This document shows, one piece after another, positions 10,932-26,978 of a stretch of 64,000 nucleotides of DNA. A program made the position numbers and the translations under genes. The notes under the pieces were generated by a model. That model was not told where the DNA came from. It did no database searches and saw only the letters and a program-made list of their open reading frames with translations. The stretch is from a virus (lineage: Duplodnaviria; Caudoviricetes), in the IMG/VR virus record IMGVR_UViG_3300034061_006011; one strand, given 5' to 3'. Each line of letters begins with the position of its first letter. Within the stretch, counting starts at the first letter, position 1.

Positions 10932-13400
10932 CTAGTTTATTAAAACAATTCTGTAATCAAGAGTGTTTGATGGCAAAAGATATCTTTTATGTTGAGGAGG
11001 AGAGTTTAAACTAAAAGTAGAAAATCCATTGGTTGGTGGAGAAACCTGTATTGATAAACAATTATTCTTTTCTAGAATATGCTTAAATATCACATAATCG
11101 TCTGCCCATACATTAATTCTTTCTATCCTAAACTCACTGTCCATGCCAATTAACTGACAATATGATTTGTTATTCTTAGAATACTTAACATTCACATCTA
11201 AAACTTCAATCTGAACATTGTGCCTGCGAACACCATTAGCATGCAATTCAATAGAATTTGCAAATGTACAACTAGGATCGTACATTTTGAATGTAGACAA
11301 TCGACAAGTAAACTGAAAACCATAATGCTTTCTTTCTGCCAAATGAATGTCGTTAAGATCAAGAATCAATTCTTTATCATCAATTGTAATTTCATCTTCA
11401 TCAAAATCATCATAACTAATCTCTACCTCGGCTGTTCCTTTCTGTGTCATCCTCTTCCATTTTTTATGCAATTTCAATACGTCTGGACTAGGATTTATAC
11501 TTGAAAGTATACCAAACAAACTTTCAGATAACTCCAAATTATAATACTTTTCTGGCAATAAACTCATAATACTTTTCTTAAGATCCAAATAACTTTTATT
11601 AGATCTTTTATTCTTGTCAATAACTTTCTTGTTCTGAAGAGAATACGCTTGCCAGAACTTGTAATCCTTCTCAGTATTGACCCCAAACACACGCAAAGGA
11701 ATCAAAGCTTTCAATACACTAGCATCCGATCCAAACCGCTGTAGAAAATCGTGTATGCCCTTATAAGGCTTCTTTAATACTATATCTCTAGCTGTATCCT
11801 CTCCAATTCCCTTAATGTTGCCAAACCCTGCATAAATCTGATTGTCTTGAATAGAAAAATTATAACTGCTTTTGTTTATGTCAACAGGATTAACAATCAC
11901 TCCATGCTTGTAAGCATCTGTAATGTAAACTCTTTTCTTCTCCTCATCCTTTTCTAACATCAGAAGAGCAGCATAAAATTCAAGCGGATAATGTGTCTTT
12001 AAATATAGTTGGCGTGATGAAACGTAAGTATAAGCTGTGGCATGACTTAGGTTGAATCCATAAGCGGCGAAAGCTTCAATTTCAGAGAAAATTTGTGCTA
12101 CTTCTTCTCTTGTTGCTTCAAGTACATGGATGCCGTTTTCAATAAACTGTTCTTTATATTTTATAAAGCTTGATATTTTTTTCTTTGAAATGGCTTTTCT
12201 GATTGTTTCGCAGTCTTTGAGTGGAATTTTACCAACTACGTTAAGGATTCTCATAACTTGTTCTTGGTAGACAATAATTCCATATGTAGAAGAAAGAATT
12301 GGTGCAAGAGCGGGATGAAGTGTGTATTCTTCTTGTTTTGTTTTTCTTCTAATGAATACTTTATCCATTTCTGCGTTAAGCGGACCCGGACGATACAAAC
12401 TGACGATTGCTACTAAGTCATTAAAACTATCGATCCCAGAGGCTTTTACGACCTCTCTAATGCCACTGCTATCATACTGGAACACACCAATAAGATCTGC
12501 GTCATTAGCATTTGCTATTGATTTTGGATCATTCAGATAAGATATATCATCCCAATCTTCATTATTGCCTGAAATGAATTTTACATTATGTCTTTCTTTT
12601 ACCATCTTTGCAGTATATGCCATTTGTTCTAAAGCACTAATTACCAACAAATCAAATTTTACAAGACCAAGCGGTCCAAGTTCTTGTGTCGCTAATCCTT
12701 CAACAAATTGTGATACTAAGTGATCACCACCAGTAGTTTTCATTAAGGGAACGAATTTGTTAATTTCATCTCTGCATATAATAACACCACCAGCATGTTT
12801 GCCTGTATTTCTAATTCTATGAAGCAACTTTTGAACTGCTAATGCTAATTCTGGATATTTTCCAAGATATGATTTTAATTCAGGAAAAGTATCAACAGCT
12901 TCCTCATAAGTCAATTCATCCCCATCTTCATCTCTCATCCTTAAATTCTTAGTAATATTTAAAACTTCATTTCTGTCTAATCCATATATTCTCGCCATGT
13001 CAATCATGGCGCTCTTAAGAGCATATCTTCCATAAGTTCCGATTGAACAAGTATTTACAGCTTTGTATTCACTAGGTGCGTATGTATTTTTAAGATAATC
13101 TCTAACATCTGCTATAAAGTCAATATCAACGTCTGGAAATTCATTTGTTTTTGTTTTAGGCATTTCGTTTATGTTAAATTCATCACATATTCCGAGAAGA
13201 ACTGGAACAAGGAGATTGTTTTCATTGGGTAATTTCTTTTTTTGTCTTACGAGGTCGATGAAATAATCGCAGCAATTTTGTGTTTCAATTTCAATTAATT
13301 CATATCTGAGCCTGAACTTATGTTCTGGATCATTGCAAAAAGGAAATTTGTTAAACTGATGTTTGATCAGTTTTGTAAAATTTTCAATTGTAATGCTCAT
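10932..13400 (-). CDS. dnaE: DNA polymerase III alpha (DnaE), C-terminal polymerase/HhH/OB part of a split gene
   Basis: FPDVDIDF, GKHAGGV, GLVKFDLL, GVFQYDS, LYRPGP, IIVYQEQVM, AYGFNLSHA, GFGNIKGIG. Confidence 0.92.
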   Translation of the reverse strand: MSITIENFTKLIKHQFNKFPFCNDPEHKFRLRYELIEIETQNCCDYFIDLVRQKKKLPNENNLLVPVLLGICDEFNINEMPKTKTNEFPDVDIDFIADVRDYLKNTYAPSEYKAVNTCSIGTYGRYALKSAMIDMARIYGLDRNEVLNITKNLRMRDEDGDELTYEEAVDTFPELKSYLGKYPELALAVQKLLHRIRNTGKHAGGVIICRDEINKFVPLMKTTGGDHLVSQFVEGLATQELGPLGLVKFDLLVISALEQMAYTAKMVKERHNVKFISGNNEDWDDISYLNDPKSIANANDADLIGVFQYDSSGIREVVKASGIDSFNDLVAIVSLYRPGPLNAEMDKVFIRRKTKQEEYTLHPALAPILSSTYGIIVYQEQVMRILNVVGKIPLKDCETIRKAISKKKISSFIKYKEQFIENGIHVLEATREEVAQIFSEIEAFAAYGFNLSHATAYTYVSSRQLYLKTHYPLEFYAALLMLEKDEEKKRVYITDAYKHGVIVNPVDINKSSYNFSIQDNQIYAGFGNIKGIGEDTARDIVLKKPYKGIHDFLQRFGSDASVLKALIPLRVFGVNTEKDYKFWQAYSLQNKKVIDKNKRSNKSYLDLKKSIMSLLPEKYYNLELSESLFGILSSINPSPDVLKLHKKWKRMTQKGTAEVEISYDDFDEDEITIDDKELILDLNDIHLAERKHYGFQFTCRLSTFKMYDPSCTFANSIELHANGVRRHNVQIEVLDVNVKYSKNNKSYCQLIGMDSEFRIERINVWADDYVIFKHILEKNNCLSIQVSPPTNGFSTFSLNSPPQHKRYLLPSNTLDYRIVLIN

Positions 13401-13764: not shown

Positions 13765-15117
13765 ATGATGAACTTTAAATCTTGGTTAATTTTATCTGAA
13801 ACAATAACGGTCAAGGACCAAGAATTTCGTGAGCCATTGACTGCATTGAAACACATACAAGAAACTCATCCAAATCCAGAAAATCTTGTTGTTACGTTTA
13901 CAATGATTGATAAAGTTGGCATCAATCCAAAAAGTAAATACGATACGCCTCTTGGCATTTACTTTTATCCAATAGATTTTGTCATTGAAAAGAAAATGAA
14001 TGTTCCATTTGCTGGAGAACAACCTTATCTTAATGTTTGCGAGTTTACAAGACCAGAAAAAATATTACACATGACTTCTGATATAAATAATCAGAAAGGA
14101 TTGGATTTACTTAATGTGTTTGCAAAAGAAGAAGTTGATCTTGCAATAGAACGCCTTGAGAACAATTATGAATTGCGTAGTAATTATTCTAAATTATGGC
14201 TTGTGACCAGAGAAATGGCATTCCATAAACCTGTTTTATGGAATGCTAATTTAAGAAAATGTGAGATTGATGGATTTGTAGATCATAATACTAAAACAAT
14301 TCATGAAAACGAACCAACTCAAGGTGTTGTTTTTACTGGTACTGCGTTGAGAAGGATACTTGTGATTCCACAAATATTGAGGAAGCCATTACCTGATATA
14401 AACAAAATTCCTTTGAACCAACTTGAAAAATTGTTAAAAAATAGAAATTTGTTTAATAATGATATTCAAAAATTTCTTGATGACGCAGAAAACAAAGATG
14501 AAATAGCAAGAATTATAATTCAATATAAACCAGAATTGTCTAATGACGATATTTCTACTTTGCTTTATTATGCAGAAAATAAAGATGAAATAGCAAGAAT
14601 ATTGGGTTCAGACAATATTAATAAATTATCTGATGATGATATTTATAGTTTGCTTAGACTTACAAAAAACAAAGATGAAATGGCAGGAATATTTTCATCA
14701 GACAATATTAATAAATTATCTGGTGATCATGTTTATAACTTGCTTATTTATACAAAAAACAAAGGTCAAATGGCAAGAATATTAGGTCCAGACAATATTA
14801 ATAAATTAACTGCTAAAAATGTTTCTGATTTGCTTCATTATGCATCTAACAAAAATAAAATGGCAGAAATGGCAGAAATATTAGGTCCAGAAAATATTAA
14901 TAAATTAACTAATAGTGATGTTTATAGTTTGCTTCGTAATGCATATGACATAGAAGAAATGGCAAGAATATTAGGTAAAGAAAATATTGATAAACTAAAT
15001 TCTGATAATGTTTATAATTTGCTTCATTATGCATCTAACAAAAATAAAATGAGACAAATCTTAAGAAAGTATTACACAGGAACAAATCCAGAAGTAATTT
15101 CTTTACTCAAACAATAA
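13765..15117 (+). CDS. Putative ADP-ribosyltransferase-fold protein with ~30-aa helical repeats; capsid-targeting-like leader
   Basis: MMNFKSWLILSE; TPLGIYFYP, PYLNV, EIDGFVD, IHENEPTQGVVF shared with 51182..52624. Confidence 0.45.
   Translation: MMNFKSWLILSETITVKDQEFREPLTALKHIQETHPNPENLVVTFTMIDKVGINPKSKYDTPLGIYFYPIDFVIEKKMNVPFAGEQPYLNVCEFTRPEKILHMTSDINNQKGLDLLNVFAKEEVDLAIERLENNYELRSNYSKLWLVTREMAFHKPVLWNANLRKCEIDGFVDHNTKTIHENEPTQGVVFTGTALRRILVIPQILRKPLPDINKIPLNQLEKLLKNRNLFNNDIQKFLDDAENKDEIARIIIQYKPELSNDDISTLLYYAENKDEIARILGSDNINKLSDDDIYSLLRLTKNKDEMAGIFSSDNINKLSGDHVYNLLIYTKNKGQMARILGPDNINKLTAKNVSDLLHYASNKNKMAEMAEILGPENINKLTNSDVYSLLRNAYDIEEMARILGKENIDKLNSDNVYNLLHYASNKNKMRQILRKYYTGTNPEVISLLKQ
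14491..15060 (+). repeat. Coding tandem repeat, about 90 bp / 30 aa unit, 6-7 copies
   Basis: Units such as NKDEIARILGSDNINKLSDDDIYSLLRLTK and NKGQMARILGPDNINKLTAKNVSDLLHYAS; DNA repeats gcaagaatattaggt and gacaatattaataaatt. Confidence 0.9.
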
Positions 15118-15124
15118 ATAAACA

Positions 15125-16468
15125 TCAAGATTGACTAAACTTCAGTACAGCTTGACTACCTCTATTCTCTGAGAGGAATCTAGAGAACAGTAGGTCATGT
15201 CTGATTGGATCTACGTCAGTAACACCAAGTAAATATAAGACGAGAGAACCAGCACCAGAACCTCGACCGGGTCCAACCGCATAAACACCATCCAAACCAG
15301 TAATCTCATGACTAATTCTCCTAGCTTCATCAGTAAAACTTTTAACAATTAAAAAGTAAGATGAAAATTGCTTTCTAAAAATCAAATCTAATTCTTCTAA
15401 TATTCTCTTGAAATAAACATCATTAGTTTTACTAATCCCTCTCTTCTTCAAACCTTGCATTACTAATTCTTTCAATTTCTCCTCTTCATCAATAATCTTA
15501 GGCAATTTAACACTTCTATCCAACTTAACATTCTCTGCCATACGACATATCTTAACAGTATTCATCTTGGCTTGTTCAAATATCTCCAAAGGAATTACAT
15601 CAGAATATTTCTCAAGCCACTTCTTGTTCATTTCATCTTCAGTCTTCATCCAAAGGTTTCTATCCTGCAATTCAAAAACATCAGCATTTTCTGACTTCAA
15701 CTTTTCAATTTCAGCTAATGTTCTCTTAGTGTTAACCAACATCATTATTGTCTGATACTTGCTATCTTCCTCATATGCATAATGAACATCATTGCTCATA
15801 ATCATAGGAATGCCATGCTTAAGATGCATTTCTACTAAAAATTGGTCATAACCTCTCTGATACTCAAAATCAAGCAACATCATTTCAAGATAAAAGTTAT
15901 CACCAAACATATCCTTGTATTTCAGAACCATTTCTTCTGCTTTTTCTTTTCCATATAGCTTCAAAGCTCTTGCTGCTTCTGAAGCGCAACAACAACTAGT
16001 AAAGATTATACCTTCTCTGTGTTTCTTTAATAATTCATGATTAACTCTAGGTTTCCTATAAAAACCTTGTGACCAACCAAGGCTACAAAGTTTAGTTAAG
16101 TTTTCGTAACCTTTGTTTGAAACGGCAATGGCTAATATATGACTTGATGTTTTGAATGCTTCGTATTGATCAGGAGAAAGACTCTTTATGAAGTTATTTC
16201 TTTCTTCTTCGTTCTCAGTTGCTTCTGTGTGAATAGGATTAACGTAAAGCTCGCAGCCAAAAACTGGCTTAAACTTCTTTTTATCAAATTGTTCTGTTTG
16301 TGAGATTAGACTTGGGATTGATGCCATGAGTCCATGATCGGTAACACAAAGGTAATCACCATGTGTGCTCCATCTGTCGCAATATTCTAAAATTTTCCCA
16401 AAACCGTCAAGGATACTGTATTCGCTGTGTAAATGCAAATGTTCAAAGCCAACAATATTCATGTGCAT
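15125..16468 (-). CDS. dnaE: DNA polymerase III alpha (DnaE), N-terminal PHP part of a split gene
   Basis: HLHLHSEYSILDG, VTDHG, GCELY, SHIL, NDVHY, GPGRGSGAGSLVLYLLGVTDVDPIRHDLLFSRFLSENR then stop. Confidence 0.92.
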   Translation of the reverse strand: MHMNIVGFEHLHLHSEYSILDGFGKILEYCDRWSTHGDYLCVTDHGLMASIPSLISQTEQFDKKKFKPVFGCELYVNPIHTEATENEEERNNFIKSLSPDQYEAFKTSSHILAIAVSNKGYENLTKLCSLGWSQGFYRKPRVNHELLKKHREGIIFTSCCCASEAARALKLYGKEKAEEMVLKYKDMFGDNFYLEMMLLDFEYQRGYDQFLVEMHLKHGIPMIMSNDVHYAYEEDSKYQTIMMLVNTKRTLAEIEKLKSENADVFELQDRNLWMKTEDEMNKKWLEKYSDVIPLEIFEQAKMNTVKICRMAENVKLDRSVKLPKIIDEEEKLKELVMQGLKKRGISKTNDVYFKRILEELDLIFRKQFSSYFLIVKSFTDEARRISHEITGLDGVYAVGPGRGSGAGSLVLYLLGVTDVDPIRHDLLFSRFLSENRGSQAVLKFSQS

Positions 16469-16837: not shown

Positions 16838-17578
16838 TTAAACCTTTACCACTCCAAGCATGCGATTTCTTACATCCCGCCAACCAATCATATTAGGAAC
16901 TTCAAAGTCACCATTTCTTACCAATAGCAAGCCGTTTTCTTTAACAGCGCCCATGATTTTGTTAATATCAAATTTATATTTGTTCATATCCCAGAATATT
17001 ATTTTATATTTTTTTTCAGGTTCAAGTTCTGTTGTAAGCTTCATGCTATGTTGAAACATATGTTTATTTTCTAGAACATAATCATCAAGAACTAATGTTT
17101 CTGTTTCATCTTCTGTGAAGAAAAATGACCATATATAACCAAATGGCATATTGCCATATTGGTCACTAAGTCTATAGTAGTGTGGCGATTTGTTTGTGTA
17201 ATAAAAATGCCACTCATCTTTAAAAAATTCTTTTAAATTAATTTTCTCATAATTTCTTAGAACCAAATCAGTATCAGTATCAAATTTCAATGGAGACTCT
17301 GAAAAAGCACCTTTGACCAACATGCTTTCACAATATTTTTTAATATAATTGTTTACATAATCAATATTTTTGATTAATTCTTCATCACAAAACACATTAA
17401 AAAAACATCTTTTTTGAATAATAGACTTTAAAAAACATGTATTAGCAAGAGATCTGTCTCCGAATAAAAATATTTTAACATTTTTATCTTCCAGACTGTT
17501 ATCAAATTTAGAATACCATTTACCGAATGGTAAGCCGGGTGCATTTTGAAAAACGAATCTTAAAGCTGGTTGACTCAT
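16838..17578 (-). CDS. Hypothetical protein translationally coupled to spoVR
   Basis: ATG overlaps spoVR TGA (ATGA). Confidence 0.6.
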   Translation of the reverse strand: MSQPALRFVFQNAPGLPFGKWYSKFDNSLEDKNVKIFLFGDRSLANTCFLKSIIQKRCFFNVFCDEELIKNIDYVNNYIKKYCESMLVKGAFSESPLKFDTDTDLVLRNYEKINLKEFFKDEWHFYYTNKSPHYYRLSDQYGNMPFGYIWSFFFTEDETETLVLDDYVLENKHMFQHSMKLTTELEPEKKYKIIFWDMNKYKFDINKIMGAVKENGLLLVRNGDFEVPNMIGWRDVRNRMLGVVKV

Positions 17579-19170
17579 AGCCGCATCAATTGCTCCCTAC
17601 TAATCGTCTTGGGATCAGCAAGCGAATAGTCACCATTCATATCTTGACAATAATAAAACACTTCATCATTATTGTGATTGATTGTTTGCAATGCTACAGG
17701 TTGTCTCATTAAAAGGCAAATAGATTTAATTACTTCATAAGCATATGGTTTATACAATTCTAAACCATCAGAATAATGTTGTATAAAGAAAATATTCCCT
17801 TTAAAATTAGGTTCAACTAATTTAATGTTTGGCAATCCTCTATTGATATGTTTCTTAAGAAGATTCTTTTTAATCTTCTTGTAATCATGACTTTCAATCT
17901 TAACTTCACCAGTTGGATATCTTTTATATTCAAAGAACTCATTCTTTTCACAAAAATCTTTAGTAAAGAATTCATTAATTAACTGAAAATCATCATAGTT
18001 TTTGCAAACTTCAAACACCTTTTCTTTACCTAATCCTAATTTTTGATCCCAATTTTCTTTAAGTAATGGATCTGTGCAAGATTCATATTCGCTTCCGAAT
18101 CTGCCTTTGTTCCATCTTTCTTCAATATCCATCAAAAGAGTAAAGCCAAGTTTATATGGATTGGTGCTATATTTGCCTCCAAGCACACCTGCTTTATGAA
18201 TTGAATATTCAACAATCCCAGCGTCTTCTGCTTCTTGTCCAAGGCTGCAATAGCCTTGTTTAGCAATAATATTGTAGTCTGTCCATGAGGCTAGACCTTC
18301 GTTGCATACTTTAGTTTTACCTTGTGGGCTAAAATAAATTGCTTCGTTGTAAAGAATTTCTGCAATATCTCGTTGCCAAGGTTTGAATGGTGCGTTTTCT
18401 TTAATATACCCAAATACATCAGATTCTGGGTTAGCCATCATATTCAGATCATTTAATATTTCTCGTTCTTCAATTTTTGTATTTTGAGCATTAATAAATT
18501 CTTTTGTATTGATCCAGTCTTCCATGTAATCATTTTTTGTTTTAATTCTTCTTGGGAAAGAGTATTCTCTTTTATCTGTGATTACAACTTCTTTAGCTTT
18601 TCTTTCTTTCCAAATATTCATTGGATCGACAAGTGTTTCAAGACGCATTAAATTATCAATAAATTCTGTAACAGTTTCTCTTCCATATCGAGACATGTAT
18701 TTTCTTACATTAGATCCATTGTTGGCAAGTTCATTATGAGCATTCGTATTAGTTCTAGAAAAATGAATGTTATTCTTGAAGAAATGAACATGCCCAAGAG
18801 CATGAGCAATAACCGTAATATTATCAAGAATTGTGTTTGAATTTAGACAATATAGATATGATGGATTACAGTTGATAACCATTTCATATATTCTATGGTT
18901 GCCGTGCAGATAACCACGTTGCATTTCTTCGTATTCAGCGCCAAACTTCCAATGTGGATATCTTACTGCAAATCCACCATAGCTTGCAACTTCACTCATT
19001 TCATCATGAGAAAGCATTTGTACAATGGTTGGATAAAAATCAAGACCAAAATCTTTACAAGCTTTAAAAATGGTAGGGATATGTTTCTGTAGTTCTTCTG
19101 GAATTGGCACACCGGGGGTGGTTGCTGATCCAAACAGAACAGGTGAACCAAATAAGAATTTATCACTCAT
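17575..19170 (-). CDS. spoVR: SpoVR/YcgB family protein
   Basis: RYPHWKFG, IYEMVINCNP, VIAHALGHVHFFKNN, YFSPQGKTKVCNEGLAS, NPYKLG. Confidence 0.93.
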   Translation of the reverse strand: MSDKFLFGSPVLFGSATTPGVPIPEELQKHIPTIFKACKDFGLDFYPTIVQMLSHDEMSEVASYGGFAVRYPHWKFGAEYEEMQRGYLHGNHRIYEMVINCNPSYLYCLNSNTILDNITVIAHALGHVHFFKNNIHFSRTNTNAHNELANNGSNVRKYMSRYGRETVTEFIDNLMRLETLVDPMNIWKERKAKEVVITDKREYSFPRRIKTKNDYMEDWINTKEFINAQNTKIEEREILNDLNMMANPESDVFGYIKENAPFKPWQRDIAEILYNEAIYFSPQGKTKVCNEGLASWTDYNIIAKQGYCSLGQEAEDAGIVEYSIHKAGVLGGKYSTNPYKLGFTLLMDIEERWNKGRFGSEYESCTDPLLKENWDQKLGLGKEKVFEVCKNYDDFQLINEFFTKDFCEKNEFFEYKRYPTGEVKIESHDYKKIKKNLLKKHINRGLPNIKLVEPNFKGNIFFIQHYSDGLELYKPYAYEVIKSICLLMRQPVALQTINHNNDEVFYYCQDMNGDYSLADPKTISREQLMRL

Positions 19171-19172
19171 TT

Positions 19173-20363
19173 TTAAAATGTCCTATCCGCACTTGTGAAC
19201 GGATTTCCAAGAATTTCTCTAATAGCACCTAGTATTGCTTCGTTCCGTTTTTCTTCATCCTTAAGAACACCATGCGGAATTTCTGTGACAATCACATTAT
19301 CTCCTAATGTTCCTTCTATAATTTCTTTTTCCACTGCTTCTGCAACAGTTCCTTTATAAGTGTACGAACCAATTTGTGTTATAGAAGCCAAGTTGACTAT
19401 ATTTTGAGGAAATTCCTTTTTCAGCAGAGACACAAACTTTTCATTATCATTATCATAATTTTCACCATCTGTGAAATAAAAGAAATAGATGTTCCAATTG
19501 TTAGGAGGAAATCTATTCTCAAATTGTTTTGCAACTAGATCTAAAGCTGTAGAACATGTGGTGCCGCCACCGTTTCTTATCCTATAGAAGTCCTTTGCAT
19601 CTACTTCGTGAGCAGCAACGTCATGCCAAACATAAAGTCTTTCGACTCTTTGATAAAAACTTCTGATATAAGTGTCGATCCAATAAGCCATATCAGACAC
19701 AACAGAAACTTTATTATCATCCATTGATCCGCTAGCATCTCTAGCAAAGATAACAACTGCGTTGCTTGAAGGAAAGACAATTTCGTTATATTGTCTGTAC
19801 CTTTTGTCACTATTAATAGGATTAATCATCCTGACTTTATCTTTAAAGCCGGGAATTTCGTACATTTCGTTGATTTCGCCAGTGCCACAAAGACGTTTCA
19901 AAGCCTGAAGCATTGTTCTGCGAGTGTGACGAAGAGATTCTGGACCAACAAGAGAAATGTTATTATATTTGATTTTTACATCTTCAAGATTGGCATTTTC
20001 TTTTGGTTTGATATCAGGAAGACTGAGTTCTTCTTTCATGAAATGAAGAATGTCTTCCATGTCTAGCTGGACGATGATGCCTTCGCTTTCATCTTGTCCA
20101 GCACCATTACCATTTCCTTTTGGTCCACCATCTTTACCGATGGTGTCGCCATCTTTGCCATCTCCACGCCCAACACCATTAGGATTCCTACCATGAAGAA
20201 AATGAGGAATGTCAATTGATGGTATTTTGATTGAAACTTTACCGTTTTTACCACGGTGGCGAAATACTTCGCCACTCTTGATAAACTTCTTCAAGTTTTT
20301 TCTGATTCTACCGCTGACAATATCTCTAAAGTCTTTATGGTCGGAATCAATCCTTCTTGGCAT
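19173..20363 (-). CDS. yeaH: YeaH/YhbH (DUF444) vWA-type protein
   Basis: GDGKDGD Gly-rich region, RYRQY, FARDASGSM, GGGTTCS, FTDGEN. Confidence 0.9.
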   Translation of the reverse strand: MPRRIDSDHKDFRDIVSGRIRKNLKKFIKSGEVFRHRGKNGKVSIKIPSIDIPHFLHGRNPNGVGRGDGKDGDTIGKDGGPKGNGNGAGQDESEGIIVQLDMEDILHFMKEELSLPDIKPKENANLEDVKIKYNNISLVGPESLRHTRRTMLQALKRLCGTGEINEMYEIPGFKDKVRMINPINSDKRYRQYNEIVFPSSNAVVIFARDASGSMDDNKVSVVSDMAYWIDTYIRSFYQRVERLYVWHDVAAHEVDAKDFYRIRNGGGTTCSTALDLVAKQFENRFPPNNWNIYFFYFTDGENYDNDNEKFVSLLKKEFPQNIVNLASITQIGSYTYKGTVAEAVEKEIIEGTLGDNVIVTEIPHGVLKDEEKRNEAILGAIREILGNPFTSADRTF

Positions 20364-20378
20364 TGATGTCCCCTTAAA

Positions 20379-22454
20379 TTAGAATAGGTCTTCTGCTAAA
20401 TCGCCTCTTGCAAAAATACTGCTTACATAATCAAGCACATCTGTTGCGCTCTGCTCATTATAACCATATTTTTCAACAAGTCTTTGCTTGACCGCATCAA
20501 TCTTCTTTTGAACATCTGGGTCAACTGTTGTTGCTCCAGATGAAAATGCACTCAATTTAATGTGATCTTTTGTATCCTCAAACAACTTTGATTCCAAAGC
20601 TTTCTTGAGAAGAGGGTTGCTATCCCATCTGAAAGTCTTACCTTTTACTGCAAGATCGCCAATAAAGGCTGCAATCATACGCCGGAAATCATCACAAGTA
20701 GATTCTGGAACATCAATCTTGCTCTCAATAGATCGCATTAGCTTTTCATCTGGACTTTCTTCTCGTCCAGTAATCTTATTGGTAATTCTTGCTTTATTGA
20801 TGTAAGCCATCAAATTGTCGATATAATTTGCACAAAGCCTGACAATTGCCTCTTCATCTCCCACAAGAGCCTTTTGAACTTCGTTCTTAAGAATGTCATC
20901 AAGCTTCTTAGTTGCAAGAGTAATGCAGTTTTGATACTTGCGTACCAAATCTTTGTTAGAAATAAGAGAATGATTCTCAAGTCCACTCTTCAAAGCATTC
21001 AGCACCATGAATGGATTAATATAATCATGTCTGCTTGATAAGGTAGAAGAAATCTTGTCCTGTACATATCTTGCAGACATGCCAGTCATACCTTCATTTG
21101 GGTTCTTATCCTTAATCTCTCTAACTCTATCAATTGTCCATCCGGGCAACATCTTTCCATCATAGAGGTCTGCTTTTTCTGTCAAAGTGATCTTATTGTC
21201 CTTGTCATCTTCAAGCCTTGTAAGGACTGAAAACAGTGCAGCAATCTGTAATGTGTGAGGAGCGATATGCTGCTTGATCTTATTTGAATTATAATCTTGT
21301 TCTAATACTTTGAGTTCCTTGCTCCATTCTAGGAGATAAGGAATTTCGATTCTTACAGTTCTGTCCTTCAAAGCTTCCATGTACTGATTGTTCTTTAACT
21401 TTTCGTATTCAGGAATATTGGTATGTCCGATGATAGCTTCATCAATGCTAATCTGAGAAAACTTTTTAGGCTTAATTGACTTTTCTTGTGATGCTCCAAG
21501 AAGATCGTACAAGAAAGCTGTTTCAAGCTTTAGCATTTCAATAAATTCGATAACTCCACGATTTGCAACGCAGAATTCACCATCGAAATTAAATGTTCTT
21601 GGATCAGAATCACTTCCAAATGTTGGAAGTAGAGCAAAATTGATATCACCAGTAAGTTCTGTGCTATCTTGATTCTTTTCATCTTTAGGCTGGAAAGAAG
21701 CAATACCAACTCTATCTGCTTCAGAATATTGTTTTCTGACAACAACAATGTGGTTATTTACAACTTTAACCCAATCTCCATTGTACATCTTGAGCAATTT
21801 GTCAAAGAAAAACTTACATTTTGGATTAATTTCACCTTCTACATTGAGGCTGTAGAGAGTTGTTCTTTGTGATGGATCAGCATTATCCCTATGAATCTTA
21901 TTCAATTCCTCAAGTACTTGCTTTCTTACTGCAAGAGGAAGAAGTTTGATTGGATCTTCGTTCATTGGGCATTCACAAGTGTCGCTTGTGTAGAAGCCAT
22001 TTTGTCCTGTTGGCAGATTGACCCACTTGTAGGAATACCAAGCGCCATTTTCAGTCTTGGAATAATCTTCCATATTACGCTTGATTAATCGGCAAATAGT
22101 AGACTTAGCAGAACCTACAGGTCCGCATAGAAGAAGGATTCTTTTTTCTGGACCGTAATGTCCTGCGGCACCCTTGAAATGAGCAACCAAAGACTCAAGC
22201 TGATCTTCGATACCAAAAACTTTAATTTCTTCATGATTTTCAAAAAATTTATAGGTTACGATCTTCTTGCGATACTTGTCAATTTCTTCTGTTCCGAATG
22301 AAGTGATCATGTCGTAAATTCTTTGATGAGAATTACGAGCTAATTTTGGATTACTGTAACATCTGTTAAGATATTCTTCAAAACCAAGCTCTTCATGGAG
22401 CTTCTTATAATCATCAAGATTGTTGTTATTAGCAAACTGTGTCAAACTAACCAT
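20379..22454 (-). CDS. prkA: PrkA/YeaG family AAA+ serine kinase/ATPase
   Basis: LLLCGPVGSAKST Walker A, CPMNEDP, QDSTELTGDI, FDGEFCVANRGVIEFIEMLK, EALKDR, GMSARY. Confidence 0.95.
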   Translation of the reverse strand: MVSLTQFANNNNLDDYKKLHEELGFEEYLNRCYSNPKLARNSHQRIYDMITSFGTEEIDKYRKKIVTYKFFENHEEIKVFGIEDQLESLVAHFKGAAGHYGPEKRILLLCGPVGSAKSTICRLIKRNMEDYSKTENGAWYSYKWVNLPTGQNGFYTSDTCECPMNEDPIKLLPLAVRKQVLEELNKIHRDNADPSQRTTLYSLNVEGEINPKCKFFFDKLLKMYNGDWVKVVNNHIVVVRKQYSEADRVGIASFQPKDEKNQDSTELTGDINFALLPTFGSDSDPRTFNFDGEFCVANRGVIEFIEMLKLETAFLYDLLGASQEKSIKPKKFSQISIDEAIIGHTNIPEYEKLKNNQYMEALKDRTVRIEIPYLLEWSKELKVLEQDYNSNKIKQHIAPHTLQIAALFSVLTRLEDDKDNKITLTEKADLYDGKMLPGWTIDRVREIKDKNPNEGMTGMSARYVQDKISSTLSSRHDYINPFMVLNALKSGLENHSLISNKDLVRKYQNCITLATKKLDDILKNEVQKALVGDEEAIVRLCANYIDNLMAYINKARITNKITGREESPDEKLMRSIESKIDVPESTCDDFRRMIAAFIGDLAVKGKTFRWDSNPLLKKALESKLFEDTKDHIKLSAFSSGATTVDPDVQKKIDAVKQRLVEKYGYNEQSATDVLDYVSSIFARGDLAEDLF

Positions 22455-22455
22455 G

Positions 22456-22782
22456 TTATTTTACCTCTCCAAAGTGATTGCCACTAGAAATATCATCAAT
22501 CGGATTATACGGAGTTGTTCCCATATGGGAAGAACTTTCTGCTTTTCTTCTTAGATCTTGAGCTTGTTCCAAGTTATATCCAGCCCTGTAATTAAAATTA
22601 TCAAATTTACTAGTGTCTTTAGGTTGGGCGAACTTAATATTAGCATCATTTATTAATTTTTTCTTTTTCTTCGAATTACAATCAGGACATGAAACGCTAG
22701 CGTATCGACCTTTTGGATCGAAAGACGCTAGTGCTTCGTAGTTTTTATCACAGTTTTTACAAGCAAAATTATATGTAGGCAA
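22456..22782 (-). CDS. FmdB-family zinc-ribbon protein
   Basis: MPTYNFACKNC...VSCPDCNS. Confidence 0.8.
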   Translation of the reverse strand: MPTYNFACKNCDKNYEALASFDPKGRYASVSCPDCNSKKKKKLINDANIKFAQPKDTSKFDNFNYRAGYNLEQAQDLRRKAESSSHMGTTPYNPIDDISSGNHFGEVK

Positions 22783-22832: not shown

Positions 22833-23111
22833 TTAATCTTGAATCAATTTTTTTAATTCATTATAAGCAATTTTAATTTTTTCCATTTTATTTTTTAATG
22901 ATATAAACGACCAAAACCAAGAACTTTTACAAATTTTCAATGATTCCTCAAGCAATTTTGTTTGAATTTCTTGCTCAAGAAGAATATTTTGTTCCATCTG
23001 TATGGCTAACATTTGAGAATCGATGAAACTTTCGTTTCCGTCTTCATCTTCATCTTCAAAGTCGTCATCGAACTCATCATCGCCATATGTTTCAAAATCA
23101 AATCTTTTCAT
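22833..23111 (-). CDS. Acidic hypothetical protein
   Basis: DDEFDDDFEDEDEDG tract; GGAGG RBS, ATGA overlap. Confidence 0.6.
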   Translation of the reverse strand: MKRFDFETYGDDEFDDDFEDEDEDGNESFIDSQMLAIQMEQNILLEQEIQTKLLEESLKICKSSWFWSFISLKNKMEKIKIAYNELKKLIQD

Positions 23112-24186: not shown

Positions 24187-24315
24187 ATGAAAACATTTAT
24201 CACATTGGTAGTGGCTTTTGTTTTAGGTTTTTTTGTTGGTGTAACTTCAACAATCATTGGACAGTTTCACTACTGCCCATTTGTTAAAGCAAAACTCATC
24301 CATAAGCATGAATGA
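24187..24315 (+). CDS. Small single-pass membrane protein (42 aa, absent from ORF track)
   Basis: GGAGG RBS; MKTFITLVVAFVLGFFVGVTSTIIGQFHYCPFVKAKLIHKHE. Confidence 0.55.
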   Translation: MKTFITLVVAFVLGFFVGVTSTIIGQFHYCPFVKAKLIHKHE

Positions 24316-25666
24316 TTTTATCAATAATATTAGTTGTTGATAGACCTTCGACCAAAGGAATGAATTCAATTCTATCAACAACATTGGCTCCAGCAATGTT
24401 TTTACCTCTCCAATCTTCACCCTTAACCAAAACATTTGGTTTAATTGATTCAATTGCATTTTGAGGGAAATCTTCTTCTAAAACAAAAATAAAATCTACA
24501 TATTTTATTGCTTTTAACATTTCAATTCTTTGAGACAAAGGTATGATTGGTCTTTTTTCACCCTTCAATTTAGCTATACTCTCATCTGAATTAATACCAA
24601 CACAGAGTTTGTCACCAAAAGATTTTGCTTGTTTTAAAGATGATATATGACCATAATGTGTAAGATCCATGCAGCCATTAGTCCACACTAAGCTAAAATC
24701 CCTGTTTCTTAACACAGCAGGATTATCAATCACTTTATCTTCAACAAAAAAATCTGATGGGTTTAAAGGTTTGTTATAACGGTTAGCAACATAATTAATC
24801 CCAGCTTCAAACGAAATGTTTAATGATTCTAAAAAATCGATGCCTAGACCTAGTGACATTGCCAAGAATGCCATGTATGCATCTCCAGCACCAATTACGC
24901 TTTCTGGTTTTATTACTTTTTTACTAGGTGTTACATGATATATTTTGTCATTATCATCAATTGCATCTACACATTCCCCTGCATTTGTAATAACAACATT
25001 ATTACATCCTAACAATGCATGAAGCCATTTCAACTGATCTTCAACTTTTTCTTTGCTGACAAATCTTTTTGCTTCAACAGCATTAGGCTTAAATAAATAA
25101 CATCCTTCCCAAATGTTAAGATTCTTTTTGGGATCAACGAGCGATTTACTTTGCTTTAAATATTTTTTATGCCAATTTGTTGAAAATAATCCTTTATCAT
25201 AATCTGAAAAAATATTAATATCTGCTTCTGGAATCTTGAGTTCTTCAAGATAAGAGTCAATATTGCTTAGTCCAAAATTAGACTTTTCAATATCCCATCT
25301 GGTTAAAGGGTGAAAATCTTTGTAAAATCTTCTTTTTATTGGGTTGTTAATTTTTTCATCAACAATTGAATATTGAGTATTTATTCCATTTGAAGAACAA
25401 ATTTGTTCTGATTTAGGGTTCAACAAAGAGATAATATTAACTTTTACATTAAAATTGCGGAATTGATAAGCAACATTAGCTGCACCTCCGCATAATGTCT
25501 GATATGGTTCAGATGTATTAGAACTGTGAACTGGAATTGGAAATTCTGGACTTATTCTGTCAACTTCAACATGATAATATTCATCAATAATAACATCTCC
25601 AATAACATTAATTGTTATTGGTTTAACAAAAAGCTTATCTATTAATTTTGAAAAAATATTGTTCAT
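24296..25666 (-). CDS. hldE: Bifunctional ADP-heptose synthase HldE (PfkB kinase + nucleotidyltransferase)
   Basis: GDVIIDEY, RISPEFPIPV, GGAANVA, SDYDKG, VDPK, GAGD; WTNGCMDLTHYGH, GINSDESIAKLKGEKRPI, LVKGEDW. Confidence 0.92.
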   Translation of the reverse strand: MNNIFSKLIDKLFVKPITINVIGDVIIDEYYHVEVDRISPEFPIPVHSSNTSEPYQTLCGGAANVAYQFRNFNVKVNIISLLNPKSEQICSSNGINTQYSIVDEKINNPIKRRFYKDFHPLTRWDIEKSNFGLSNIDSYLEELKIPEADINIFSDYDKGLFSTNWHKKYLKQSKSLVDPKKNLNIWEGCYLFKPNAVEAKRFVSKEKVEDQLKWLHALLGCNNVVITNAGECVDAIDDNDKIYHVTPSKKVIKPESVIGAGDAYMAFLAMSLGLGIDFLESLNISFEAGINYVANRYNKPLNPSDFFVEDKVIDNPAVLRNRDFSLVWTNGCMDLTHYGHISSLKQAKSFGDKLCVGINSDESIAKLKGEKRPIIPLSQRIEMLKAIKYVDFIFVLEEDFPQNAIESIKPNVLVKGEDWRGKNIAGANVVDRIEFIPLVEGLSTTNIIDKIIHAYG

Positions 25667-25700
25667 GAAGTAAATATAGTTAAAGAAACTAAAGGAAAAT

Positions 25701-26978
25701 ATGCACAATTTACATCAACTAAGAAAAAAGCTAATCGACGATCAATTCGTAAATTTTTTGGTTGAAAAAAGAGTTAGTCCAACTGATTTGATCTCATTAG
25801 CGATGAAGATCAATAACACAAGAAACCTTAATGAAGGGATTTTTGGAGGTATTGGTGGCGCTTTAAGCGGTTTGTATCATGGTTGGAAATCAGGATATGG
25901 CAGTAAAGATATTACCAAAGCAACAGAAATTTTAAAAAATCAATTAGATTTCGCTTATAGAACCTTTAAAAATAGCTTAGTAAAAAGTACTGGAGATGAA
26001 GCTACTGCAAATAAAATCTTAGATAATTTAAGAAAAAATTCAGACATTGCAATTACAAAAGCAGTAAGTGGAGAAACTACAACAGAAAAAGAATACGGAC
26101 CAACAAAAAGTTCTCCTACTTTTACACCTGTTCCTGCAAAAGAAAAAATAGAAGCTGAAGCCGAGGCAGAGGCTGAAGCAGAAGCCGAAGTGCCAAAAAA
26201 ACCAAGAAAACCAAGAAAACCAAAAGATCCTGCGCCAATTGTTACGCCGCCAGATGGCAGTGGTGGTCCTCCAATAATGTCAGACCCAACTGGTCCTGCT
26301 CCTCTTCCAGCAGACGATGAAGACACTGGAGAAATGACAAGAACAGGAGAATTACCAGAACCAGAACCAGAACCAGAACCAAAAAAGGAAGTATTATCTT
26401 TCAAAGATAAAGAGTTCTTAATGAATTTAAGAGAATTTATTGATATTTTAATGAAAAAATTAAGTTTTATTGAACAAAAAAAATTACCTTTCTCTGTCTT
26501 AACAATACTAAAAAGACTTTATAGATTTGGATATATTTATGGATCTAGAGATCTGCAAGACCTTCACAAAGAAAAAAATGTAAATAAAATTGGTTCAGAA
26601 GAACATGAAGAAATGTTGAAAAAAATTGTTGAGATATTCACAAACAATAGTTGTGATTTTAGCAAAGAATCGTTAACTAATAACTTGATAAGAAGATTTG
26701 AATATTATGAAAAAAATCATGGACTAACAGGTAGCAATCTTAATAAAACTTTGAAGGAAGAAAAAATTTGGAAAAATTTATTTTCAGCAATAGATGATAC
26801 TAAAGATTATTTAAATTCTTTTTGTATAGACAATCCAGATAAATGCGGAGAAGGATTAAAAACCCTTGGTGCTGCTGGACAATCTGGTGTTGCACGACTA
26901 CTCAACAGTTTAGAAGAAGCAAAACTATCTTTGACTTTCAAAAATTGGTTACTAATTAAAGAAAATATACTATTTTAA
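25701..26978 (+). CDS. Hypothetical low-complexity protein (EA, KPR, PE repeats)
   Basis: 425 aa; LNEGIFGGIGG segment; C-terminal SLTFKNWLLIKE; TAAATA upstream. Confidence 0.65.
   Translation: MHNLHQLRKKLIDDQFVNFLVEKRVSPTDLISLAMKINNTRNLNEGIFGGIGGALSGLYHGWKSGYGSKDITKATEILKNQLDFAYRTFKNSLVKSTGDEATANKILDNLRKNSDIAITKAVSGETTTEKEYGPTKSSPTFTPVPAKEKIEAEAEAEAEAEAEVPKKPRKPRKPKDPAPIVTPPDGSGGPPIMSDPTGPAPLPADDEDTGEMTRTGELPEPEPEPEPKKEVLSFKDKEFLMNLREFIDILMKKLSFIEQKKLPFSVLTILKRLYRFGYIYGSRDLQDLHKEKNVNKIGSEEHEEMLKKIVEIFTNNSCDFSKESLTNNLIRRFEYYEKNHGLTGSNLNKTLKEEKIWKNLFSAIDDTKDYLNSFCIDNPDKCGEGLKTLGAAGQSGVARLLNSLEEAKLSLTFKNWLLIKENILF

Follow-up and report, generated by a model that had tools for sequence, protein, structure and literature searches.

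A PrkA-YeaH-SpoVR Operon of the Bacterial Starvation Type, with a Clade-Specific Zinc-Ribbon Gene, in a Clade of Huge Phages

Huge phages of one clade, whose genomes measure about 0.53-0.67 Mb, carry a compact operon that by homology is the phage's own copy of the PrkA(YeaG/SpdA)-YeaH(YhbH)-SpoVR(YcgB) starvation module, led by a zinc-ribbon gene that is specific to the phage clade. The member described here is from lakes and lies in IMG/VR virus record IMGVR_UViG_3300034061_006011, of which a stretch of 64,000 nucleotides (hereafter "the window") was analyzed; the operon and one further coupled gene fill positions 16838-22782 of its minus strand. Few bacterial stress modules that lack a known mechanism are as widespread as the PrkA/YeaH/SpoVR trio. 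Its presence in phages is already known, from annotations in Thermus and Ralstonia phages and from PHROGs, which has families for PrkA, YeaH, and SpoVR. What the window adds is a huge-phage lineage that keeps the trio, together with a lineage-specific zinc-ribbon gene, as tightly as it keeps its replication genes. It also adds a variable slot 3' of SpoVR.

The Operon and Its Phage Setting

The original prediction for this region, made from the letters alone, had placed five open reading frames (ORFs) here, and their positions, on the minus strand, are confirmed base for base. In the order of transcription they are as follows (lengths in amino acids, aa):

22456..22782, minus strand: FmdB-type zinc-ribbon gene; 108 aa, TTG start; Pfam Zn_ribbon_8 PF09723 and TIGR02605
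20379..22454, minus strand: PrkA/YeaG-family AAA+ ATPase of the "long PrkA" type; 691 aa; Pfam AAA_PrkA and PrkA C-terminal domain
19173..20363, minus strand: YeaH/YhbH (DUF444) protein, vWA-like; 396 aa; Pfam DUF444
17575..19170, minus strand: SpoVR/YcgB-family protein; 531 aa; Pfam SpoVR
16838..17578, minus strand: 246-aa ORF, fold unassigned, without a Pfam or PHROG family

The genes are closely packed. From coordinates and sequence alike, a single base separates the zinc-ribbon stop codon from the PrkA ATG; the coordinates leave gaps of 15 nucleotides (nt) between PrkA and YeaH and of 2 nt between YeaH and SpoVR, and a 4-nt ATGA overlap links the SpoVR stop to the start of the 246-aa ORF, an arrangement of translational coupling. 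Pfam and PHROG matches were obtained for all four operon genes (zinc ribbon, PrkA, YeaH, and SpoVR). Every motif that had been named for these proteins was located in the window translations, in which GPVGSAKS, DASGSM, GGGT, TDGEN, HALGH, and NEG are all found.

A scan of IMG/VR with the PrkA protein returned 139 contigs at 59-100% identity, and gene order was read in 80 of these. The clade order is an HldE-like gene, a small acidic ORF, the zinc ribbon, PrkA, YeaH, SpoVR, and the PHP/N-terminal piece of a split DnaE, and it is kept almost throughout the 80 contigs. The genes prkA, yeaH, and spoVR themselves are adjacent, co-directional, and in the same order in about 75 of the 80 phage loci, as they are in 52-57 of 80 bacterial loci. 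With the PHP/DnaE-N gene as an independent anchor, the trio was found upstream in 10 of 10 loci at identities of at least 47% (a 527-kb contig among them) and was not upstream at two distant loci (32% identity). In many clade members the space between PrkA and YeaH is occupied by cargo, namely a DUF6445 protein, a Dam-type methyltransferase, or a HATPase_c_3 protein (cargo loci L016:9686-10495, L080:9134-10045, and L064:9353-10822); the window has no such cargo.

One contig of the clade is a 572-kb genome with direct terminal repeats that is rated 100% complete and encodes a large terminase. The IMG/VR contig nearest to the window is 91 kb long and, at 16% completeness by CheckV, points to a genome of about 570 kb. 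Among cultured or curated phage records, the best match is LR756511.1, a 595-kb uncultured phage whose PrkA is 63% identical, and megablast of the region against INPHARED gave no match. In the window itself, PHROG matches identify a DNA-polymerase-III-type replicase, ribonucleotide reductase (RNR), a UvsX-like recombinase, a gp32-like single-stranded DNA-binding protein, an SbcC-like nuclease, and a DnaB-like helicase, and the operon lies in this phage replication module.

Could the operon nevertheless be bacterial DNA wrongly joined to a phage contig, by host contamination or chimeric assembly? Two observations lean that way: GC content is slightly raised (0.35-0.38 at 18-22 kb vs 0.30-0.33 in the flanks), and public records label some clade proteins as belonging to bacterial or archaeal metagenome-assembled genomes (MAGs). 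The small rise lies over PrkA and YeaH and agrees with the high conservation of the coding sequence there, and the labels are mislabelings. We reject this explanation, which retains next to no probability, because the same phage-flanked order recurs in viral contigs (139 of them, up to 572 kb), because depth is even across 14 kb in four independent lake metagenome runs, and because contigs in those runs span both operon borders. In addition, the proteins group apart from all bacterial homologues sampled. The original prediction had put the operon in a phage and had named contamination or a chimera as the way in which it could be wrong; synteny, depth, and the junction-bridging contigs uphold the phage assignment. 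Near-identical copies of the 5.9-kb stretch also occur in lake or freshwater metagenomes (20 runs, 17 studies), of which four runs are possibly the source samples; no RNA run was listed among those that contain it.

As for regulatory signals, a promoter scan placed promoter-like sites at the operon at a frequency not above that in shuffled sequence, and an upstream-motif scan found no motif common across the clade upstream of the zinc-ribbon gene. A terminator scan placed a terminator-like hairpin just 5' of that gene in three relatives. The PADLOC defence models gave no match for PrkA, YeaH, SpoVR, or the 246-aa ORF, and for the zinc-ribbon protein only weak PtuB matches at the Cys-rich segment (E 1e-4 or weaker); judged by these model searches, none of the five proteins convincingly matches a known anti-phage defence system.

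The Module Proteins, Their Relatives, and a Phage-Specific Partner

PrkA is recognized by both Pfam families of its name, AAA_PrkA (PF08298; 5e-78, 263 bits) and PrkA (PF06798; 4.5e-74, 250 bits), at a cut-off of 25, and matches phrog_22605 at 5e-105. It carries Walker A GPVGSAKS, an acidic Walker-B-like GVIEFIE, and an invariant block, FQPKDEKNQDSTELTGD; neither GPVGSAKS nor GVIEFIE varies in any of the 79 clade members or the 80 bacterial PrkA proteins compared. A solved 692-aa "Serine protein kinase" (9xip, 9xiq, and 9xir; 30 chains in three entries) matches the window PrkA at E 4e-206, and a literature search on the PrkA cryo-electron microscopy structure found no paper for 9xip. The score against NCBIfam NF011999, the enterobacterial YeaG equivalog, is 207 bits and does not reach the cut-off of 576. 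On these scores, the window protein is classed as a PrkA-family member outside the YeaG equivalog group.

The YeaH protein matches Pfam DUF444 (PF04285; 1.8e-61, 209 bits vs 27) and phrog_19072 (5e-69), and stays below its NCBIfam equivalog cut-off (326 vs 388). Its elements of the metal-ion-dependent adhesion site (MIDAS) type, D209-x-S211-x-S213, GGGT, and DG, are unchanged in all 78 clade members and occur in the bacterial proteins too. SpoVR likewise is a clear family member (PF04293; 5e-97, 325 bits vs 27) and is not an equivalog of NCBIfam PRK11767 (152, cut-off 679). It has an HxxxH motif (H123 and H127) and, after some 160 residues, N290-E291-G292-x-A-S; all 60 phage sequences and all 47 bacterial ones preserve HxxxH and NEG. 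The phage form of the first motif is HA(L/T)GH (HALGH in the window), with Ala at position 2 in all 60 phage proteins and Val in all 47 bacterial ones. These two motifs recall the gluzincin ligands HExxH plus (W)LNEGFA or NExxSD, a resemblance that we take as a lead only. The original prediction would have failed had the catalytic motifs been non-functional; to judge from the alignments, the motifs of the module look intact and are invariant within the clade, and the triad is complete.

By sequence, neither SpoVR nor YeaH has relatives in the PDB, and a structural model was made for SpoVR. The AlphaFold2 (AF2) model, from a 38-row alignment, has a mean predicted local distance difference test score (pLDDT) of 79 and a predicted template modeling score (pTM) of 0.73. 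In it, HxxxH and NEGxAS sit on separate helices, with NEGxAS on the later of the two, the N-terminal 400 residues look zincin-like and helical, and the C-terminal part is predicted to be the beta-rich SpoVR_C domain. In an exhaustive VIA-align search with this model, the top 50 matches were nearly all zincins (Z 6-11 over 110-210 residues, root-mean-square deviation 3-5 A), with the best at Z 8-11 over 180-200 aligned residues. The matches include M30, M1/LTA4H, M3, M32, M4, M9, M36, M61, YbeY, and BepA, and among the gluzincin metallopeptidases it is the catalytic domains (M1 aminopeptidases, thermolysin M4, M3, M32, and others) that align with the model at Z 8-11. A zincin-like fold is thus the likely assignment on the strength of the model.

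Inteins were found in two of the module proteins of relatives. The 1138-aa PrkA of P0009 contains one with a LAGLIDADG domain, after GSDSDPR (window residues 286/287), and the 1368-aa SpoVR at L031:10295-14398 contains two LAGLIDADG inteins, one after YEMVIN (near residue 100) and one inside NEGWA|S (294/295). As a rule, inteins occupy motifs that are conserved in important proteins. Their position at invariant sites of PrkA and SpoVR is consistent with importance, as a supportive point only.

How does the phage operon compare with known systems? In bacterial "long PrkA" operons, the three families follow one another as they do in the phage and share the motifs, with a PrkA of about 690 aa that is 51-55% identical and YeaH and SpoVR proteins that are 33-43% identical to those of the phage. 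The nearest cellular PrkA proteins, at 51-55%, come from MAGs of Myxococcota, Chloroflexota, Bdellovibrionota, Planctomycetota, and Calditrichota. The phage operon differs from the bacterial ones in its zinc ribbon, in forming a separate clade on a long stem, and in its position inside a replication module. The same Pfam families are represented by yeaG(spdA)-yeaH plus ycgB in Escherichia coli and by prkA-yhbH plus spoVR in Bacillus subtilis, and the phage trio falls far short of the cut-offs that NCBIfam sets for enterobacterial and Bacillus equivalogs. The Walker A lysine that B. subtilis PrkA requires for function is conserved in phage PrkA. The SpoVR homologue of E. coli, ycgB, is not part of the yeaGH operon, whereas the phage joins prkA, yeaH, and spoVR in one tight operon.

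Other phages have the trio as well. PrkA, DUF444, and SpoVR genes are adjacent in the genomes of lytic phages, namely the Thermus phages TMA and phiYS40 with their relatives, the Ralstonia jumbo phage RsoM2USA, and the uncultured phages LR756502 and LR745206 (630-640 kb). They are annotated as "serine kinase" and "SpoVR" in TMA and tabulated in the RsoM2USA paper, and the gene order in the Thermus phages differs from that of the window. No zinc-ribbon gene was found by tblastn in the trio loci of the Thermus phages, RsoM2USA, or LR756502/LR745206. With only 25-31% identity to that of the window, the PrkA proteins of the Thermus phages, RsoM2USA, and the uncultured phages of 630-640 kb are farther away than the bacterial proteins and therefore come from other PrkA subfamilies and separate acquisitions. 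Two comparative papers on jumbo phages (PMC7824862, PMC12619734) do not mention the trio.

Phylogenies of all three proteins set the phage clade apart from the nearest bacterial proteins, as the original prediction had proposed to check. In the PrkA tree (IQ-TREE quick, 86 rows), the phage clade falls on one side of a branch with a Shimodaira-Hasegawa-like approximate likelihood-ratio support (SH-aLRT) of 96 and a stem of 1.24 changes per site; in the FastTree trees of YeaH and SpoVR, a single branch likewise sets it apart, supported at 100 and 99, respectively. For these trees, which are unrooted, the bacterial sample was picked by PrkA similarity. They suggest a single old acquisition of the trio by the clade, followed by vertical inheritance.

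Selection was gauged from the ratio of non-synonymous to synonymous substitution rates (dN/dS), computed pairwise against three relatives; synonymous sites are near saturation and the figures are rough. The values are 0.03-0.06 for PrkA, 0.05-0.08 for YeaH, 0.07-0.12 for SpoVR, and 0.04-0.12 for the zinc ribbon, with 0.02-0.07 for the PHP polymerase subunit and 0.2-0.5 for the 246-aa ORF. By this measure, the four-gene operon is under strong purifying selection, similar to that on the neighboring DNA polymerase subunit. Two relatives (L009 and L172) show a mosaic pattern relative to the window, with PrkA at 97% identity and the PHP gene at 98-99%, and the zinc ribbon, YeaH, and SpoVR between at only 79-86%; this suggests recombination among co-occurring relatives.

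The zinc-ribbon gene is a phage-clade-specific fourth member of the operon. It lies directly 5' of PrkA in about 75 of the 80 clade loci, with 29-83% identity, and tblastn found it upstream of bacterial prkA in none of 80 loci. Its protein matches Zn_ribbon_8 (PF09723) at E 9.7e-10 (38.7 bits vs 34.4) and TIGR02605 at 41 bits vs 31.3, and the four ribbon cysteines are invariant in all 32 sequences aligned. The architecture consists of an N-terminal CxxC...CPxCxS followed by NPxGTDxW, HDYR, and R..AE..SHMG..PY, and the family alignment ends in an almost invariant C-terminal tail, IDDISSGxHFGEVK. The TTG start is supported by an MPxYxF N-terminus that relatives share, whether they start with ATG or TTG. 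The family comprises 653 clusters at 90% identity; the best 120 are mostly 108-115 aa long and come from contigs of up to 585 kb.

The original prediction had looked for the fourth part elsewhere, in the 246-aa ORF, which it proposed as an adaptor or substrate of the machine. That role does not hold as a general one: the ORF occurs in a single sub-clade and evolves fast, ClpP or other genes stand in its place elsewhere, and the conserved phage-specific fourth part is the zinc-ribbon gene instead. A search of 1.84 billion clusters returned eight representatives of the ORF and one of 5.8 billion proteins returned three clusters, and each homologue examined in its context directly follows SpoVR, only in the window's sub-clade. 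A family hidden Markov model found none in the other clade loci, and identity drops to 26-33% where SpoVR remains 77% identical. The 246-aa ORF is a fast-evolving accessory of one sub-clade and not a core part of the module. The survey of phage genomes thus finds the trio across the clade and in distant phages, and this ORF in the sub-clade only.

Two assignments for the 246-aa ORF were considered. A diverged ClpP is rejected, with an hhalign probability of 0.2% against the ClpP-like genes of the clade and no Pfam match. A class I methyltransferase was not adopted: the best ESM Atlas score was 0.88 (<0.9), and the alignment has no S-adenosylmethionine-binding glycine motif. The single-sequence AF2 model (pLDDT 34) was unusable.

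In other clade members, the slot after SpoVR is filled differently. A ClpP-like protease gene directly follows SpoVR in 28 of about 80 clade loci (e.g., L023:12188-12898) and in 0 of 80 bacterial loci. Pfam recognized six of nine ORFs sampled from this slot as ClpP-like, and other loci hold unrelated ORFs.

What the Module May Do

Starvation induces in E. coli a largely non-specific breakdown of cytoplasmic proteins. It requires YeaG (renamed SpdA), and it provides amino acids and ATP from which new protein is made (PMC13684143, October 2026). PrkA of B. subtilis breaks down casein, an activity that depends on ATP and on Walker A (PMC9512850). By homology, we propose that the phage runs its own PrkA-YeaH-SpoVR machine for the ATP-dependent turnover or remodeling of host cytoplasmic proteins, a reading to which we give an even chance. 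PrkA would serve as the AAA+ ATP-driven motor, YeaH as its vWA/MIDAS partner (compare MoxR-vWA pairs), and SpoVR as a zincin-fold, metal-binding subunit, and the zinc-ribbon protein may use its conserved C-terminal tail to dock on the machine or to regulate it. In a host that is poor in nutrients and infected for a long time, such turnover or remodeling would free amino acids and energy for building the very large virion and genome. Here we infer that the proteins form a physical complex, that its output is proteolytic, when it is expressed, and how the phage gains from it.

Two observations in the clade favor this proposal, namely the ClpP-like gene that follows SpoVR in those 28 loci and the resemblance of the SpoVR model to zincin peptidases. 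It is important to remember that the trio is retained as tightly as the replication genes and has had a partner of its own added, which argues for a direct benefit during infection; that benefit would most simply be raw material and energy in nutrient-poor hosts.

Several points tell the other way. YeaH and YcgB do not appear in the account of degradation in E. coli (PMC13684143), and B. anthracis PrkA had negligible protease and kinase activity in vitro (PMC13001217), so that PrkA itself may not be the protease. The Glu of HExxH, the general base of zincin catalysis, is replaced by Ala or Val and is missing in every SpoVR examined (60 phage and 47 bacterial). As for the model, Z values under 11 are moderate and helical proteins can match by arrangement alone, and Foldseek against the PDB gave no match at E 0.001 (best E 0.06; the weak top rows included anthrax lethal factor, a zincin, and RecJ). 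Finally, ClpP is missing from the window and from the complete 572-kb genome, which makes it optional.

The original prediction had described an AAA+/vWA/metallopeptidase machine, and of its last term one half stands better than the other. There is some structural backing for a zincin-like SpoVR, at the moderate Z of 8-11. With HALGH in place of a motif bearing the catalytic Glu, a classical metallopeptidase mechanism is unsupported, and a Pfam search of the HxxxH-NEG segment at E up to 10 matched no peptidase family. Going by the model, SpoVR is probably a metal-binding protein of zincin fold and not a textbook metallopeptidase.

A lesser possibility is that the module regulates the state of the host by switching its stress, dormancy, or stationary-phase programme on or off, for example by degrading or phosphorylating a few regulators, and thus keeps a starving or dormant host productive or prevents it from going dormant. 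PrkA has effects on the expression of sporulation genes and on stress tolerance in both B. subtilis and B. anthracis (PMC9512850, PMC13001217), yeaG mutants are altered in survival and regrowth lag (PMC13684143), and viral spoVR, reported as the most abundant "sporulation" auxiliary gene in marine viromes, has been read as manipulating host physiology (PMC8940887). Set against this, turnover in E. coli is broad and largely non-specific and does not fall on a few targets (PMC13684143), the kinase activity of PrkA was not reproduced in two studies (PMC13001217, PMC9512850), and sequence cannot separate specific from bulk targets. For the viromes, our results suggest that "sporulation" labels on viral spoVR are misleading.

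Quite improbable, in our judgment, is a role internal to the phage, in which the module acts as a MoxR-like assembly or remodeling chaperone that matures or metallates the huge capsid, the replication machinery, or a compartment, and leaves host proteins alone. Such a role would suit an operon placed amid replication genes, between HldE and the split DnaE, and a zinc-ribbon partner confined to the phage clade; the pairing of an AAA+ protein with a vWA protein is also that of MoxR-vWA chaperone systems. It sits less well with conservation between phage and bacterial proteins that is about equal to that within bacteria, in the same operon order, which points to an ancestral cellular function. 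The far-diverged trios of distant phages (Thermus, Ralstonia, and those of 630-640 kb) are also hard to fit to lineage-specific assembly.

If the phage does run the module as a protein-turnover machine, the zinc-ribbon protein invites a bolder suggestion, which we regard as speculative and rather unlikely. With its IDDISSGxHFGEVK tail, this protein might be a viral adaptor or switch that turns PrkA-YeaH-SpoVR on host cytoplasmic proteins independently of RpoS and starvation while sparing phage proteins. Were this so, the operon would be a virus-run "bulk autophagy" that converts the host proteome into virions, and it would offer a handle on the biochemistry of the bacterial module. A predicted complex of PrkA with the zinc-ribbon protein scored 0.00, "no answer," which speaks neither for nor against. 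The phage versions are compact and highly conserved and come with an extra candidate regulator, and could suit reconstitution of the complex.

Neighboring Genes and Variable Stretches

Directly upstream of the zinc-ribbon gene is a 92-aa ORF (22833-23111) with an acidic N-terminus, which is present in most clade loci at 26-65% identity and belongs to no known family. Further 5', at 24296-25708 and conserved in this position clade-wide, lies an HldE-like gene for a bifunctional heptose-7-phosphate kinase/heptose-1-phosphate adenylyltransferase, and its conservation suggests phage-encoded ADP-heptose synthesis.

On the other side of the module, two separate genes make up the DnaE-type polymerase, one for the PHP plus N-terminal part (15125-16468) and one for an 822-aa core (10932-13400). 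A 450-aa plus-strand ORF (13765-15117) lies between the two pieces, and the split is conserved in relatives (L169). In the lake metagenomes, window positions 14400-15330 and 26076-26542 show depth spikes and many length-variant joints in contigs; they are repeat-rich variable stretches inside this 450-aa ORF and a 425-aa plus-strand ORF, respectively.

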